Shown: piece by piece, positions 2,484 to 60,317 of the stretch
How the letters are laid out: each line of letters opens with the position of its first letter
Position numbering within the stretch: the stretch's first letter is position 1
NCBI RefSeq assembly: GCF_003334385.1
Contig: NZ_QOWN01000019.1
DNA length: 64,000 bases
Source of the DNA: Escherichia coli
GTDB taxonomy: Bacteria; Pseudomonadota; Gammaproteobacteria; Enterobacterales; Enterobacteriaceae
Strand: one strand, 5' to 3'
The notes under the pieces: model-generated
Told to the model about the DNA's origin: nothing
What the model saw: only the letters and a program-made list of their open reading frames with translations
Database searches by the model: none
Made by a program: the position numbers and the translations under genes

Positions 2484-4324
2484 TTATTGCGACTGCCGGA
2501 CACGTTGACCACGGCAAAACAACCTTATTGCAGGCGATTACTGGCGTAAATGCTGACCGTCTGCCGGAAGAAAAAAAGCGCGGCATGACCATCGATCTCG
2601 GCTATGCCTACTGGCCGCAGCCGGATGGTCGCGTGCCTGGTTTTATCGACGTTCCCGGTCATGAAAAGTTTCTTTCCAACATGCTGGCGGGCGTTGGTGG
2701 TATCGATCACGCGCTGTTGGTGGTGGCGTGCGATGACGGCGTGATGGCACAGACCCGTGAGCATCTGGCGATTTTGCAGCTGACCGGTAACCCGATGCTG
2801 ACAGTGGCGCTGACCAAAGCCGATCGCGTGGACGAAGCGCGTGTTGATGAGGTTGAACGCCAGGTAAAGGAGGTTCTGCGGGAATACGGTTTTGCTGAGG
2901 CAAAACTGTTTATCACCGCAGCAACCGAAGGTCGGGGAATGGATGCCCTGCGCGAGCATCTGCTTCAGTTGCCGGAACGCGAGCACGCCAGCCAACATAG
3001 TTTCCGCCTCGCGATTGACCGCGCATTTACCGTAAAAGGTGCCGGGCTGGTCGTCACCGGTACGGCGTTAAGCGGGGAAGTGAAGGTAGGCGATTCACTC
3101 TGGCTGACTGGTGTAAATAAACCGATGCGTGTACGTGCGCTGCATGCGCAAAACCAGCCAACAGAAACCGCCAATGCCGGGCAGCGTATCGCGCTTAACA
3201 TCGCGGGTGATGCGGAAAAAGAGCAGATTAACCGTGGCGACTGGCTGCTTGCCGATGTGCCGCCAGAGCCGTTCACACGGGTGATTGTCGAGCTTCAAAC
3301 CCATACACCGCTGACCCAGTGGCAGCCGCTGCATATTCACCACGCCGCCAGCCACGTCACGGGACGCGTTTCACTGCTGGAAGATAACCTTGCTGAACTG
3401 GTCTTCGACACCCCGTTATGGCTGGCAGATAACGACCGCCTGGTATTGCGCGATATCTCTGCCCGCAACACGCTGGCCGGAGCGCGCGTCGTGATGCTTA
3501 ACCCGCCGCGTCGCGGTAAACGTAAGCCGGAATATCTGCAATGGCTGGCGTCTCTTGCACGGGCGCAGAGCGATGCCGATGCGTTATCTGTTCATCTGGA
3601 ACGCGGCGCGGTTAACCTTGCGGATTTCGCCTGGGCGCGCCAGCTCAACGGCGAAGGGATGCGCGAATTGCTGCAACAGCCTGGTTATATTCAGGCTGGT
3701 TATAGCTTGTTGAATGCGCCGGTTGCCGCCCGCTGGCAGCGGAAAATTCTCGACACATTAGCGACTTATCATGAGCAACATCGCGATGAACCTGGCCCTG
3801 GGCGCGAACGTCTGCGACGTATGGCGTTGCCAATGGAAGATGAAGCGCTGGTACTGTTGCTGATTGAAAAGATGCGCGAAAGCGGCGACATCCACAGCCA
3901 TCACGGCTGGCTGCATCTGCCAGATCACAAAGCGGGCTTCAGCGAAGAGCAGCAGGCCATCTGGCAAAAAGCAGAGCCACTGTTTGGTGACGAACCGTGG
4001 TGGGTGCGTGACCTGGCAAAAGAGACGGGAACCGACGAGCAGGCAATGCGCCTGACTCTACGCCAGGCGGCGCAGCAAGGAATAATTACCGCGATCGTTA
4101 AAGATCGTTATTACCGTAACGATCGGATTGTCGAGTTTGCCAATATGATCCGCGATCTCGATCAGGAGTGTGGTTCAACCTGCGCGGCGGATTTCCGCGA
4201 TCGCTTAGGCGTAGGCCGAAAGCTGGCAATTCAGATTCTGGAATATTTTGACCGCATTGGCTTTACGCGTCGTCGTGGAAATGATCATTTATTGCGCGAC
4301 GCATTATTATTTCCGGAAAAATAA
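2480..4324 (+). CDS. selB: selenocysteine-specific elongation factor, 614 aa
   Basis: N-terminal GTPase motif [19 protein letters not shown]; length 614 aa. Confidence 0.95.
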
Positions 4325-8241: not shown

Positions 8242-9378
8242 ATGGATTTACTGATTATTTTGACCTATGTGGCTTTTGCATGGGCAATGTTTAAGATCTT
8301 CAAAATTCCCGTAAATAAATGGACCATTCCCACAGCGGCCCTGGGTGGAATATTTATTGTCAGCGGTCTAATTCTGTTAATGAACTATAACCATCCGTAT
8401 ACCTTTAAAGCGCAAAAAGCGGTTATTTCTATTCCTGTTGTCCCACAGGTGACTGGTGTGGTGATTGAAGTGACGGATAAGAAAAATACGCTGATTAAAA
8501 AAGGTGAGGTGCTATTTCGACTGGACCCGACGCGTTATCAGGCGCGGGTGGATCGGCTGATGGCGGATATCGTTACCGCAGAACATAAACAGCGGGCGTT
8601 GGGCGCAGAGTTAGATGAGATGGCGGCGAATACTCAGCAGGCAAAGGCCACGCGGGATAAATTCGCTAAAGAGTATCAGCGTTACGCACGTGGCAGCCAG
8701 GCGAAAGTAAACCCGTTTTCAGAACGCGATATCGATGTGGCGCGGCAAAATTATCTGGCGCAGGAAGCCTCCGTGAAGTCATCGGCGGCGGAACAAAAAC
8801 AGATCCAGAGCCAGCTGGATAGCCTGGTGTTGGGTGAACATTCTCAAATCGCCAGCCTGAAAGCACAGCTCGCGGAAGCAAAATATAACCTTGAGCAGAC
8901 GATAGTGCGTGCGCCGAGCGATGGTTATGTGACCCAGGTACTGATTCGTCCGGGTACCTATGCCGCGTCGCTGCCGCTACGTCCGGTGATGGTGTTTATA
9001 CCCGATCAGAAACGACAAATCGTGGCGCAGTTCCGTCAGAACTCCTTGCTGCGACTGGCTCCTGGCGACGATGCGGAAGTGGTGTTTAATGCTCTGCCAG
9101 GTAAGGTATTCAGCGGTAAGCTGGCAGCCATTAGTCCAGCCGTTCCCGGCGGAGCTTATCAGTCGACCGGCACCTTACAGACGTTAAACACAGCGCCGGG
9201 TTCAGATGGCGTTATCGCGACCATTGAACTGGATGAGCACACTGATTTGAGCGCTTTACCAGACGGTATTTACGCCCAGGTGGCGGTTTACTCTGATCAT
9301 TTCAGCCATGTCTCGGTGATGCGCAAAGTGCTATTACGCATGACCAGCTGGGTGCATTACCTTTATCTCGATCATTAA
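8242..9378 (+). CDS. yiaV: HlyD/EmrA-like membrane fusion protein (378 aa)
   Basis: N-terminal TM helix, coiled-coil region, 5 nt after yiaW stop. Confidence 0.88.
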
Positions 9379-41714: not shown

Positions 41715-41867
41715 ATGCCGCAGAAATATAGATTACTTTCTTTAATAGTGATTTGTTTCACGCTTTTATTTTTCACCTGGATGATAAGAGATTCACTGTG
41801 TGAATTGCATATTAAACAGGAAAGTTATGAGCTGGCGGCGTTTTTAGCCTGCAAATTGAAAGAGTAA
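41715..41867 (+). CDS. hokA: Hok-family type I toxin (50 aa)
   Basis: MPQKYRLLSLIVICFTLLFFTWMIRDSLCELHIKQESYELAAFLACKLKE; SD AGGAGG 8 nt upstream; IS150 end lies 32 bp upstream of ATG. Confidence 0.85.
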   Translation: MPQKYRLLSLIVICFTLLFFTWMIRDSLCELHIKQESYELAAFLACKLKE

Positions 41868-45920: not shown

Positions 45921-48254
45921 TTGGCCAACTCATCCTCACGATATTCCGTTCTGACTGCCGCCCATTGGGGGCCCATGCTGGTTGAAACCGACGGCGAAAC
46001 CGTGTTTAGCTCGCGTGGCGCGTTAGCCACAGGAATGGAAAACTCCTTGCAGAGCGCGGTTCGCGACCAGGTTCACAGCAATACGCGGGTACGATTTCCA
46101 ATGGTGCGAAAAGGCTTTCTTGCGTCACCGGAAAACCCGCAAGGCATTCGTGGGCAGGATGAATTTGTTCGCGTGAGTTGGGATGAGGCGCTGGATCTTA
46201 TTCACCAACAACATAAACGCATTCGTGAGGCTTATGGTCCGGCATCGATTTTTGCTGGTTCCTACGGCTGGCGTTCAAACGGCGTGCTGCATAAGGCCTC
46301 GACATTATTACAACGCTATATGGCGCTGGCAGGCGGTTATACCGGGCATCTGGGGGATTATTCGACCGGCGCGGCACAGGCGATCATGCCGTATGTCGTG
46401 GGTGGTAGTGAAGTTTATCAACAGCAGACCAGTTGGCCGCTGGTGCTGGAACATAGCGATGTCGTGGTGCTGTGGAGTGCTAACCCACTCAATACGCTGA
46501 AAATTGCGTGGAATGCATCCGATGAGCAGGGGCTTTCTTACTTTTCTGCACTGCGTGACAGCGGGAAAAAGCTGATCTGCATTGATCCAATGCGATCGGA
46601 AACCGTCGATTTCTTTGGCGATAAAATGGAGTGGGTGGCACCGCACATGGGCACCGATGTTGCGCTGATGCTGGGGATCGCCCATACGCTGGTGGAAAAT
46701 GGTTGGCACGACGAAGCGTTTCTGGCGCGTTGCACCACAGGTTATGCCGTCTTCGCCTCTTATTTGCTGGGCGAGAGTGACGGAATAGCGAAAACCGCCG
46801 AATGGGCAGCAGAGATTTGTGGTGTTGGCGCAGCGAAAATCCGCGAGCTGGCGGCTATTTTCCACCAAAATACCACCATGCTGATGGCAGGCTGGGGAAT
46901 GCAGCGCCAACAGTTTGGTGAGCAAAAACACTGGATGATCGTCACGCTGGCAGCAATGTTGGGGCAAATCGGCACACCCGGCGGCGGTTTTGGTCTTTCT
47001 TACCATTTTGCCAATGGTGGTAACCCCACGCGGCGTTCTGCGGTGCTCTCTTCCATGCAGGGCAGCTTGCCGGGTGGCTGCGATGCGGTGGATAAAATCC
47101 CTGTTGCCCGCATTGTTGAAGCACTGGAAAACCCTGGTGGCGCATATCAACACAACGGTATGAACCGACATTTCCCGGATATTCGTTTTATCTGGTGGGC
47201 GGGCGGTGCCAACTTTACTCATCATCAGGATACCAATCGCCTGATCCGTGCCTGGCAAAAACCGGAGCTGGTGGTGATCTCTGAATGCTTCTGGACGGCG
47301 GCGGCAAAACACGCGGATATCGTTCTGCCTGCGACTACCTCTTTTGAGCGTAATGATCTCACCATGACCGGTGATTACAGTAATCAGCATCTGGTGCCGA
47401 TGAAGCAAGTGGTGCCGCCACGCTATGAAGCGCGTAATGATTTTGATGTTTTTGCCGAGTTAAGTGAACGCTGGGAGAAGGGCGGTTATGCACGTTTTAC
47501 GGAAGGAAAAAGTGAGCTGCAATGGCTGGAAACGTTTTATAACGTTGCCCGACAGCGCGGGGCAAGCCAGCAGGTTGAATTGCCGCCATTTGCTGAGTTC
47601 TGGCAAGCCAACCAGTTAATTGAGATGCCGGAAAACCCGGACAGCGAGCGGTTTATTCGCTTCGCTGATTTTTGCCGCGATCCGCTGGCGCATCCGTTAA
47701 AAACCGCCAGCGGCAAGATTGAAATCTTCTCACAGCGTATTGCCGATTACGGTTACCCGGATTGCCCTGGGCATCCAATGTGGCTGGAGCCGGACGAATG
47801 GCAGGGCAATGCCGAACCAGAACAGTTGCAGGTACTTTCTGCCCATCCGGCGCACCGCCTGCACAGCCAGCTGAATTACAGTTCTCTGCGCGAATTGTAC
47901 GCGGTGGCAAATCGTGAGCCTGTCACCATTCATCCTGACGATGCCCAGGAGCGCGGCATACAAGATGGCGATACTGTTCGGTTGTGGAACGCACGCGGGC
48001 AAATTCTTGCCGGAGCGGTCATTAGCGAGGGAATTAAACCTGGCGTGATTTGCATTCACGAAGGGGCATGGCCGGATCTGGATTTAACCGCTGACGGTAT
48101 TTGTAAAAACGGCGCAGTGAACGTGCTGACCAAAGATCTCCCCAGCTCGCGGCTGGGGAATGGCTGTGCGGGTAATACGGCGCTGGCATGGCTGGAAAAA
48201 TACAACGGTCCGGAACTGACACTTACAGCGTTTGAACCACCGGCCAGCTCATAA
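45921..48254 (+). CDS. bisC: biotin sulfoxide reductase, molybdopterin oxidoreductase (777 aa)
   Basis: DMSO-reductase-family sequence; length. Confidence 0.93.
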
Positions 48255-48663
48255 TCCATGTGGGTAGTTGGGTTTCATCCTGCCATGCGCAATCGACAAT
48301 GTGAAAACCCTGTGCCTGGTAAAAATTTATCGCCGGTTGATTTTTTTGATAAACCTCCAGCATCAGGTGGGGATGGCGCTGCTGCACATACTGCATCAGC
48401 GCCTTACCAATACCGCGCCTGACGGCCTTCGGTGCGACAAACATCGCTGCCAGAAATCGGCCTTCCATAATGCTGACAAAACCGAGAAGCTTACCGTCTT
48501 CTTCCCAGACCCAGTTTTGCGCGTTGGCAAGATAGGCATCCCGCACCAGCGGAATGCAGTCACGCCAGTAATTCGCTTTTATAAAGGGATGCCCCCAGGT
48601 TGTACTTTCCAGCCACAGTTCGAGGATCGCGGGGAGTTCTGAACGTTGCGCTTCCCGAATCAT
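48223..48663 (-). CDS. yiaC: GNAT-family N-acetyltransferase (146 aa)
   Basis: GNAT motif (RRGIGKALM); 3' end overlaps bisC 3' end by 32 nt. Confidence 0.88.
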
Positions 48664-49223
48664 GGTTTATTTCCCGGATAGCAACAGCAGCCAACCACAT
48701 GATCATTCACCAGCCCACATGCCTGCATAAAGGAGTAACAGATTGTGGTGCCGACAAACTTAAAACCACGTTTTTTCAGTGCCTTAGATAGGGCGTCGGA
48801 GGCGGACGTAGATGTGGGAATTTCGCTCAACGTTGTGGCTTGTGTCACCTGTGGCTGATGATTTACAAACGACCAGACAAAGTCGACAAACGGTTCGCCG
48901 TTCTGTTCCATTTGCAGGTACGCCCGCGCATTACCAATAATTGCCTGAATTTTCCCTCGATGGCGGATAATCCCGGCGTCCTGTACCAGTCTTTCGACAT
49001 CCTCTTCCTGCATTGCTGCGACCTTCACCGGATCGAACTGATGAAAGCAGGCGCGATAGTTTTCGCGTTTTTTGAGGACGGTGATCCACGATAATCCAGC
49101 CTGCTGCCCTTCAAGGCAGATCATTTCGAACAGTTTTTTACTGTCAGTTTCAGGCACGCCCCACTCATTATCATGGTAGGCAATATAAAGCGGGTCCTGA
49201 CTCACCCAGCCGCAACGTTCCAT
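48660..49223 (-). CDS. tag: DNA-3-methyladenine glycosylase I (187 aa)
   Basis: Native start MERCGWVSQDPLYIAYHDNEWGVP; Zn-binding C-terminus; track ORF over-extended. Confidence 0.92.
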   Translation of the reverse strand: MERCGWVSQDPLYIAYHDNEWGVPETDSKKLFEMICLEGQQAGLSWITVLKKRENYRACFHQFDPVKVAAMQEEDVERLVQDAGIIRHRGKIQAIIGNARAYLQMEQNGEPFVDFVWSFVNHQPQVTQATTLSEIPTSTSASDALSKALKKRGFKFVGTTICYSFMQACGLVNDHVVGCCCYPGNKP

Positions 49224-49380
49224 ACTTTCCCTCGCTATGTACCCGATCGTAAAAATTTCAGCCGCTTTTCTTGACGCATCGGTGAAAAAGTCAATATTTA
49301 ATACAGGGCTACTATGCCCGATATCCTTCATACAATGACAATAATATTGCCGAATTCGGCTCTTCCCTGGAGTCGTGTTA

Positions 49381-50079
49381 ATGATCATAAAAAAAAGCGG
49401 TGGTCGCTGGCAGCTAAGCCTGCTGGCGAGCGTGGTAATCAGTGCCTTTTTTCTCAACACAGCTTACGCCTGGCAACAAGAATATATCGTTGATACGCAA
49501 CCCGGACTTTCCACAGAGCGTTACACCTGGGATAGTGATCATCAACCTGATTACAACGATATTTTGTCGCAACGTATTCAAAGTAGCCAAAGGGCGCTGG
49601 GACTGGAAGTCAATCTGGCGGAAGAAACCCCTGTGGATGTGACCAGCAGTATGAGTATGGGCTGGAATTTTCCTTTATATGAACAGGTTACAACCGGCCC
49701 GGTCGCGGCATTACATTACGATGGCACAACCACCTCGATGTATAACGAGTTTGGCGACAGTACTACCACGCTGACCGATCCGTTATGGCATGCCAGCGTG
49801 AGTACCTTAGGCTGGCGTGTTGACTCCCGGCTTGGCGATCTCCGACCCTGGGCGCAAATCAGCTATAACCAGCAATTTGGCGAGAATATCTGGAAGGCGC
49901 AATCAGGCCTGAGCCGGATGACGGCGACAAACCAGAACGGCAACTGGCTGGATGTCACCGTAGGCGCTGATATGTTGCTCAATCAAAATATTGCCGCCTA
50001 TGCCGCGCTAACTCAGGCAGAAAATACCACTAATAATAGCGACTATCTGTATACGATGGGGGTTAGCGCCAGATTTTAA
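49381..50079 (+). CDS. yhjY: outer-membrane beta-barrel (autotransporter-domain-like) protein, 232 aa
   Basis: ATG 49381 (track starts at GTG 49375); signal peptide; C-terminal aromatic residue. Confidence 0.82.
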   Translation: MIIKKSGGRWQLSLLASVVISAFFLNTAYAWQQEYIVDTQPGLSTERYTWDSDHQPDYNDILSQRIQSSQRALGLEVNLAEETPVDVTSSMSMGWNFPLYEQVTTGPVAALHYDGTTTSMYNEFGDSTTTLTDPLWHASVSTLGWRVDSRLGDLRPWAQISYNQQFGENIWKAQSGLSRMTATNQNGNWLDVTVGADMLLNQNIAAYAALTQAENTTNNSDYLYTMGVSARF

Positions 50080-60283: not shown

Positions 60284-60287
60284 CTCA

Positions 60288-60317
60288 CAAAACCGGGGCC
60301 ATGCGCTCCGGTTTACT
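60288..60317. terminator. hairpin between convergent dppF and yhjV
   Basis: aaaccgg ggccatgcgct ccggttt overlapping yhjV stop codon. Confidence 0.45.

Follow-up and report, generated by a model that had tools for sequence, protein, structure and literature searches.

The genes bisC and yiaC of Escherichia coli point towards each other, and their 3' ends occupy the same 32 bp of DNA. In the window, i.e. the whole 64-kb stretch analyzed here, bisC extends from 45921 to 48254 on the + strand, starts with TTG and encodes the biotin sulfoxide reductase of 777 aa. The gene yiaC is found on the - strand at 48223 to 48663 and encodes a GNAT lysine acyltransferase of 146 aa. Upstream of yiaC and on the same strand lies tag (48660 to 49223, - strand), which encodes 3-methyladenine DNA glycosylase I; its TGA stop overlaps the ATG of yiaC (ATGA at 48660-48663), hence both genes probably form one operon.

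The segment shared by bisC and yiaC (48223 to 48254, coding on both strands) corresponds to BisC residues 769-777 plus stop and to YiaC residues 138-146 plus stop. The list of open reading frames, the raw sequence and the RefSeq gene ends all agree with the 32-bp overlap that had been proposed in a sequence-only reading of this DNA. Its description as the last 10 codons of each gene holds if the stop codon is counted, since in both genes the shared DNA comprises the stop, the 9 sense codons ahead of it and 2 nt of one further codon. BisC ends in the window with ...AFEPPASS, followed by a TAA stop at 48252 to 48254 (+ strand) that is replaced by TGA in some genera; YiaC ends with ...SWPVVQTL, followed by a TAA at 48223 to 48225 (- strand), which reads TTA on the + strand.

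The window is a K-12-like chromosome segment that matches MG1655 3698315-3762314 with 99.9% identity in the opposite orientation, and the RefSeq annotation of MG1655 (yiaC 3713652..3714092, + strand; bisC 3714061..3716394, - strand) contains the identical 32-bp overlap, as do the RefSeq records of strain 300709 and UTI89. Among complete E. coli genomes, the bisC/yiaC region was found in 5422 of 5426. Two more convergent overlaps are present in the same 64-kb window, namely yiaU/yiaV with 4 bp (9375-9378) and ysaE/hokA with 24 bp (41844-41867).

Convergent overlapping pairs have been counted before in E. coli, with totals of 75 (Huvet and Stumpf, PMC4161906) and 58 (Lillo and Krakauer, PMC2174442). 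The pair bisC/yiaC resembles them in consisting of two bona fide genes with shared 3' ends, in which the stop of each is read from the strand complementary to sense codons of the partner. Its 32 bp exceed the very common 4-bp class, but otherwise it is of the same kind. Hence, the overlap as such is of a common type and is already annotated (RefSeq) and catalogued (ExcludonFinder).

Native C-termini of BisC and YiaC

An apparent overlap may result from an annotation or sequencing error if one of the genes truly ends further upstream. Large annotated overlaps are often mispredictions, but the source for this view (PMC2478687) says so of overlaps longer than 60 bp. In the present case, such an error has hardly any probability, because both the length and the sequence of the C-termini are conserved among orthologues, paralogues and solved structures, the stops occur at equivalent positions in 79 species, and a constraint signature is seen in both reading frames (see below).

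The C-terminal 250 aa of BisC align untrimmed to the extreme C-termini of solved DMSO/TMAO reductases. The match continues up to residue 778 of 780 in 1eu1 and up to residue 820 of 823 in 1e60, both Rhodobacter DMSO reductases, and up to residue 809 of 813 in the TMAO reductase 7l5i; the motif EKY-x-G-x-x-x-T-x-T-x-F is common to BisC and these solved enzymes. A search with the same 250 aa retrieved 983 representatives at E<=1e-10, and the distant full-length representatives in the library of 1.8 billion proteins stop only 2-5 residues past the match. For YiaC, 146 homologues with GNAT Pfam domains were obtained at E<=1e-10. Its orthologues comprise 146 or 148 aa, i.e. they have the same end or one that is 2 aa longer, and the solved YiaC paralogue YjaB (2kcw) has 147 aa. 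In the AlphaFold2 model of YiaC (mean pLDDT 94) the final beta-strand is formed by residues 133-140 and followed by a low-confidence coil of residues 141-146, in which residues 144-146 have a pLDDT <50. According to this model, the tail 141-146 is likely disordered.

These comparisons show that bisC and yiaC are both real coding genes with homologues and that both are translated to their annotated stops. Both tails match the ends typical for their families and are thus neither artefacts nor recent extensions by read-through or stop loss. A native stop further upstream in one of the genes, which the sequence-only reading had named as the case against itself, does not occur in relatives; both C-termini are native. 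An annotation artefact was therefore ruled out as the source of the overlap.

Conservation and dual coding of the shared segment

The conservation of the overlap was analyzed in a scan based on a YiaC alignment, with one genome per species and the best 80 loci retained, all of them from Enterobacteriaceae. The genera covered are Escherichia, Citrobacter, Salmonella, Klebsiella, Enterobacter, Raoultella, Kluyvera and Kosakonia, and further Lelliottia, Leclercia, Atlantibacter, Siccibacter, Phytobacter, Pluralibacter and others. Among these best 80 loci, bisC converges on and overlaps yiaC in 79 species. The sole exception is Intestinirhabdus alba (L064), in which bisC is nearly completely lost and the tail of yiaC is kept. 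Including the window, the 80 sequences show overlaps of 32 bp (45 sequences), 38 bp (32 sequences) or 23 bp (3 sequences). Among the YiaC clusters examined, the most distant one (P0117, 52% identity) is represented by a metagenomic contig, which has the gene order yhjY-tag-yiaC-bisC and a 38-bp overlap. From this distribution, the overlap is at least as old as the ancestor shared by the sampled Enterobacteriaceae, and its retention in 79 of 80 species is far beyond chance in an evolutionary sense.

Each of the two stops is interlocked with codons that are conserved in the other gene. That of bisC sits within the yiaC codons for Ile137 and Met138 (aTT Atg or aTC Atg), of which Ile137 is nearly invariant and Met138 invariant, and its position is unmoved in 79 species. 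Hence, where bisC switches between TAA and TGA, yiaC switches between the synonymous Ile codons ATT and ATC. On the other side, the TAA of yiaC lies opposite to a part of the bisC codons for Leu768 and Thr769 (cTT Acg). The length variants can be read from this arrangement as well: BisC contains the sequence Leu-Thr-Leu-Thr, and where the TTA is lost in the second copy, yiaC stops two codons later, which gives the 38-bp overlap; in the 23-bp variant, yiaC stops earlier because Asp is replaced by Asn in BisC (TTTAAT).

Within the overlap, first codon positions face first positions, second face third and third face second, i.e. phase (123:132). This phase is the most common one, accounting for 46% of the E. 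coli convergent overlaps, and it also ranks first among overlaps of less than about 50 bp (PMC2174442). Across the 80 sequences, the columns of the overlap have a mean entropy of 0.33 bits, compared to 0.63 bits in the flank coding for bisC only and 0.67 bits in the flank coding for yiaC only. The third positions of yiaC have 0.15 bits inside and 1.20 bits outside the overlap (Mann-Whitney p 1e-5), and those of bisC have 0.52 bits inside and 1.19 bits outside (Mann-Whitney p 6e-4). Such a drop at synonymous sites in both frames is a clear signature of dual coding.

The amino acid constraints are distributed in a complementary manner. The nearly invariant BisC residues Thr-Ala-Phe-Asp-Pro-Pro face the low-confidence YiaC tail 141-146, and the constrained YiaC residues Ile-Met-x-Trp at the end of its last beta-strand face the last three residues of BisC, which are variable. 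The K-12-type YiaC deviates from the family consensus by Q141P, A142V, D143V and P146L; these four tail differences correspond to third-position differences in bisC, three of which are synonymous and one leads to a conservative change from Asp to Glu. Because the differences in the tail track bisC third positions, the constraint on BisC prevails where YiaC tolerates change, and vice versa.

Ends of the converging transcripts

The zero intergenic DNA makes a terminator between bisC and yiaC impossible, as had been expected in the sequence-only reading, and generally the terminators of convergent overlapping genes must sit within the coding sequence of the partner (Lillo and Krakauer, PMC2174442). 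From the overlap of the coding sequences it also follows that a complete mRNA of each gene includes the complement of the last 32 nt of its partner. The further claim that transcription of each gene must run into the other stands insofar as these complete mRNAs carry the complementary stretch and read-through from yiaC into bisC has been published. It needs to be modified in that termination is displaced rather than absent.

For the yiaC-sense transcript the displaced end can be located. In Supplementary file 2 of Adams et al. (2021; PMC7815308), a region of Rho termination is given for the + strand of MG1655 at 3714344 and is classified as antisense with respect to bisC. The position corresponds to 47971 in the window and lies 252 nt beyond the yiaC stop. 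The reads upstream/downstream are 90/23 in -BCM versus 60/112 in +BCM, with a Rho score of 7.3 and a p value of 5.5e-14 (PMC7815308). Since the mapped yiaC-sense termination is bicyclomycin-sensitive, it is Rho-dependent, and these published data place the end of the yiaC-sense transcript within bisC. Annotated from composition and from the peak of the Rho region at 47971, the antisense untranslated extension of the tag-yiaC transcript covers 47943 to 48222 (- strand); nt 1-280 after the yiaC stop are C-rich and G-poor with a C/G ratio of 1.4-1.7. In this regard the locus is like other cases of Rho-dependent termination of antisense read-through, with a BCM-sensitive region 252 nt past the stop and after C-rich, G-poor RNA, and many Rho regions in the same table are classed as antisense (PMC7815308, Supplementary file 2). 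Curated Term-seq 3' ends for bisC, yiaC or tag are not included in the supplements of Adams et al. (PMC7815308).

A GC-rich hairpin is embedded in the bisC coding sequence at 48138 to 48160 (- strand), 63-85 nt beyond the stop of yiaC, and was annotated as a candidate 3'-end or terminator element. It has a stem of 8-9 bp with about -15.7 kcal/mol and a weak U tail. This hairpin (48160..48138) may define where the mature tag-yiaC mRNA ends, either by terminating transcription or by blocking 3'-5' exonucleases after Rho has acted, which we regard as possible but rather doubtful. The terminator-like match at this site contains 9 pairs, 6 of them GC, the stem appears in the MFE fold, and it is kept in most species with dG values of about -15 to -19 kcal/mol. 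Moreover, 83.9% of the cells are paired compared to 24-61% in slid controls, and double-synonymous compensatory changes occur in four of the scanned loci (L028, L038, L073 and L074). The compensatory changes could indicate that an RNA element within bisC is under selection. However, the stem is followed by a poor U tract (AGAUCUUUGG) and is gone in Klebsiella, Raoultella and Siccibacter, and the covariation score of 0.065 is at the level of the slid controls (0.069 and 0.071). Furthermore, the palindrome falls into conserved BisC codons (Pro-Ser-Ser-Arg-Leu-Gly), and the supplements of Adams et al. (PMC7815308) report no Term-seq 3' end at this site.

For the bisC transcript, an intrinsic terminator was ruled out. 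A consensus scan found no terminator-like site on the + strand between the bisC stop and the end of the scanned region (48255 to 49800), and across the 80 species only 2 have such a site within 200 nt past the bisC stop. Rho-independent terminators are predicted for just 20% of the convergently overlapping genes counted by Lillo and Krakauer (PMC2174442). A fairly conserved + strand hairpin exists at approximately 48374-48402; it is not followed by a U tract. A stretch with more C than G at 48355 to 48575 (+ strand, antisense to yiaC), i.e. 100-320 nt beyond the bisC stop, reaches C/G ratios of up to 2.1 and represents a putative Rho loading zone. In composition, the RNA beyond either stop is rut-like, and Rho would be the most likely route of termination also for bisC. 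In the supplements of Adams et al. (PMC7815308) and of TERMITe no bisC transcript 3' end was found, and those of Adams et al. (PMC7815308) list neither 3' ends nor Rho regions at MG1655 3,712,900-3,714,099. The search for Rfam families between 45500 and 49800 gave no match at E<=1, and the 200 nt past each stop show no unusual RNA folding (z -0.94 and -1.32).

Bidirectional intrinsic terminators serve a similar gene geometry and the same need to halt two converging polymerases. Unlike them, the bisC/yiaC junction has neither intergenic space nor an A/T-flanked hairpin nor a terminator-like site on the + strand. With no intergenic DNA and no + strand candidate from 48255 to 49800, the identification as a bidirectional intrinsic terminator was rejected. 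Alternatively, RNA polymerases meeting head-on at the junction may terminate both transcripts, as proposed for many convergent pairs of E. coli. This general model is derived from SEnd-seq and single-molecule work (bioRxiv 10.1101/2022.10.23.513370), and the convergent geometry of bisC/yiaC would suit it. However, the model needs a stem-loop between the gene boundaries and works better with multiple polymerases on the template (bioRxiv 10.1101/2022.10.23.513370), whereas bisC/yiaC is devoid of any intergenic element, the folding at the junction is inconspicuous (z -0.9 and -1.3), and the mapped yiaC-sense termination is bicyclomycin-sensitive and thus Rho-dependent. Termination by collision is accordingly very improbable at this locus.

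Regulatory coupling or coding lock-in

One of the obvious questions is whether the overlap was selected for a regulatory function. In a functional excludon, interference between RNA polymerases and/or cleavage of the RNA duplex by RNase III would make the expression of bisC and of tag-yiaC mutually exclusive. The pair is a member of the published 'excludome': ExcludonFinder (2025) lists yiaC-bisC among 165 convergent transcript overlaps of MG1655 that occur in half or more of 58 RNA-seq sets (PMC12288877, Table 1). The read-through from tag-yiaC reaches at least approximately 250 nt into bisC antisense, and the maintenance of the overlap in 79 of 80 species could be taken as a sign of selection. 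Nevertheless, overlapping coding sequences make the overlap of transcripts automatic, so that the transcript overlap is uninformative on regulation and provides no evidence for it. The conservation is fully accounted for by the dual coding constraint, the antisense transcript is curtailed by Rho, and in the literature no expression, RNase III or single-cell result specific for this pair was found. Hence, we consider a functional excludon unlikely. The pair shares with excludons the arrangement as opposite-strand neighbours with 3'-overlapping transcripts and belongs to the list in PMC12288877, but classical excludons overlap via long UTRs and display reciprocal expression, whereas the overlap of bisC and yiaC lies in the coding sequences. 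What it has in common with them is just the trivial feature, transcript overlap.

A still less probable version would explain the conservation itself by selection for regulatory coupling, with bisC and tag-yiaC expressed exclusively and the hairpin in bisC acting as the 3'-end element of tag-yiaC; we regard it as quite improbable. The roles that would be coupled in this case are the repair of oxidised biotin and methionine (bisC) and alkylation repair together with lysine acylation (tag-yiaC). It must be mentioned that selection for regulatory coupling would yield the same retention in 79 of 80 species, and that sequence alone cannot separate it from lock-in. Taken in general, any regulatory role of the bisC/yiaC overlap has in our view a low probability.

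The explanation that we favour, and consider quite probable, is an ancient tail-to-tail overlap of two unrelated genes, which is held by mutual coding constraint and includes no dedicated regulatory device. Each stop codon is built into codons conserved in the other gene, and the tolerant tail of each protein is opposite to constrained residues of the other. The separation of the genes would presumably need a duplication of the shared segment, and the overlap would therefore persist. Transcripts of tag-yiaC run into bisC in antisense orientation until Rho stops them approximately 250 nt past the yiaC stop, and bisC transcripts would be ended by Rho once the ribosomes leave at the stop, presumably in the C-rich stretch antisense to yiaC. 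The antisense interference that the sequence-only reading had considered possible is assumed to be at most weak. Coding lock-in is compatible with the hairpin embedded in bisC as an element defining the tag-yiaC 3' end.

What our analysis adds to the annotated and catalogued overlap is modest and comprises its age in Enterobacteriaceae, the interlock of the stop codons, the signature of dual coding and the displaced, Rho-dependent termination of the yiaC-sense transcript. If regulatory coupling were true, it would add one more validated excludon and no new principle. As it is, bisC/yiaC offers a clean textbook case for the lock-in of convergent overlaps. For experimental work the arrangement has a direct consequence, since a deletion or a tag at the 3' end of bisC or yiaC damages the partner gene, which matters for knock-outs; studies on YiaC acetylation and lactylation that use knock-outs are a practical case.

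Shared 3' end of bisC and yiaC

The YiaC tail deviates from its family at residues 141-146 (window 48233-48247), where the E. coli K-12-type protein reads PVVQTL and the family consensus QADQTP. Each of these departures (4/4) matches a third-position change in the overlapping bisC codons, so the tail of YiaC seems to follow bisC passively.

At the YiaC scan locus of Intestinirhabdus alba (L064, about 3913-4096) nearly the entire bisC gene is deleted: what is left of it is residues 3-35, with the final 14 codons weakly traceable (E-value 9.4). Despite this loss, the usual YiaC C-terminus is retained, and a strong GC hairpin (GGCGGTGCGC...GCGCACCGCC) follows immediately past the yiaC stop. In E. 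coli BE104 (L003, NZ_CP040643.1, 2764-3008), bisC is reduced to a short 5' remnant and its last ~40 bp. This deletion ends slightly before reaching the yiaC stop and looks like an engineered knock-out made to spare yiaC.

Features within bisC

The annotated bisC start codon is TTG (window 45921-45923, + strand), and a Shine-Dalgarno-like AGGAG lies ~9 nt 5' of it, within ...CAGGAGTCTTCGGTTTG.... Further downstream, the codons for Pro-Ser-Ser-Arg-Leu-Gly contain the GC-rich palindrome CCCCAGC(N5)GCTGGGG (window 48138-48160, - strand), which is retained by most Enterobacteriaceae and has been lost in Klebsiella and Raoultella. It carries a few double-synonymous compensatory changes, in the scan loci L028, L038, L073 and L074, and its covariation score (0.065) is on a par with those of the slid controls (0.069 and 0.071).

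In a PDB sequence search, highly repetitive WD40 proteins (2ymu and designed WRAP-T proteins) scored spuriously well through BisC residues about 668-697 (window about 47922-48011), with E-values over the whole sequence as low as 1.7e-20. None of these matches contained a significant stretch; homology to WD40 proteins was rejected, since the scores arise artefactually when numerous repeats each match an 11-residue stretch of BisC weakly.

Other gene junctions in the window

Convergent coding sequences also overlap at yiaU/yiaV (4 bp, window 9375-9378) and ysaE/hokA (24 bp, 41844-41867), and yhjV and dppF are separated by a 29-bp gap (60284-60312). All three pairs are included in the ExcludonFinder list of convergent transcript overlaps in E. 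coli MG1655 (PMC12288877).

At the other end of yiaC, its start ATG and the stop TGA of tag overlap as ATGA (window 48660-48663, - strand). Such a 4-bp ATGA is a classic overlap of same-strand genes. The shared start and stop suggest translational coupling within a tag-yiaC operon.
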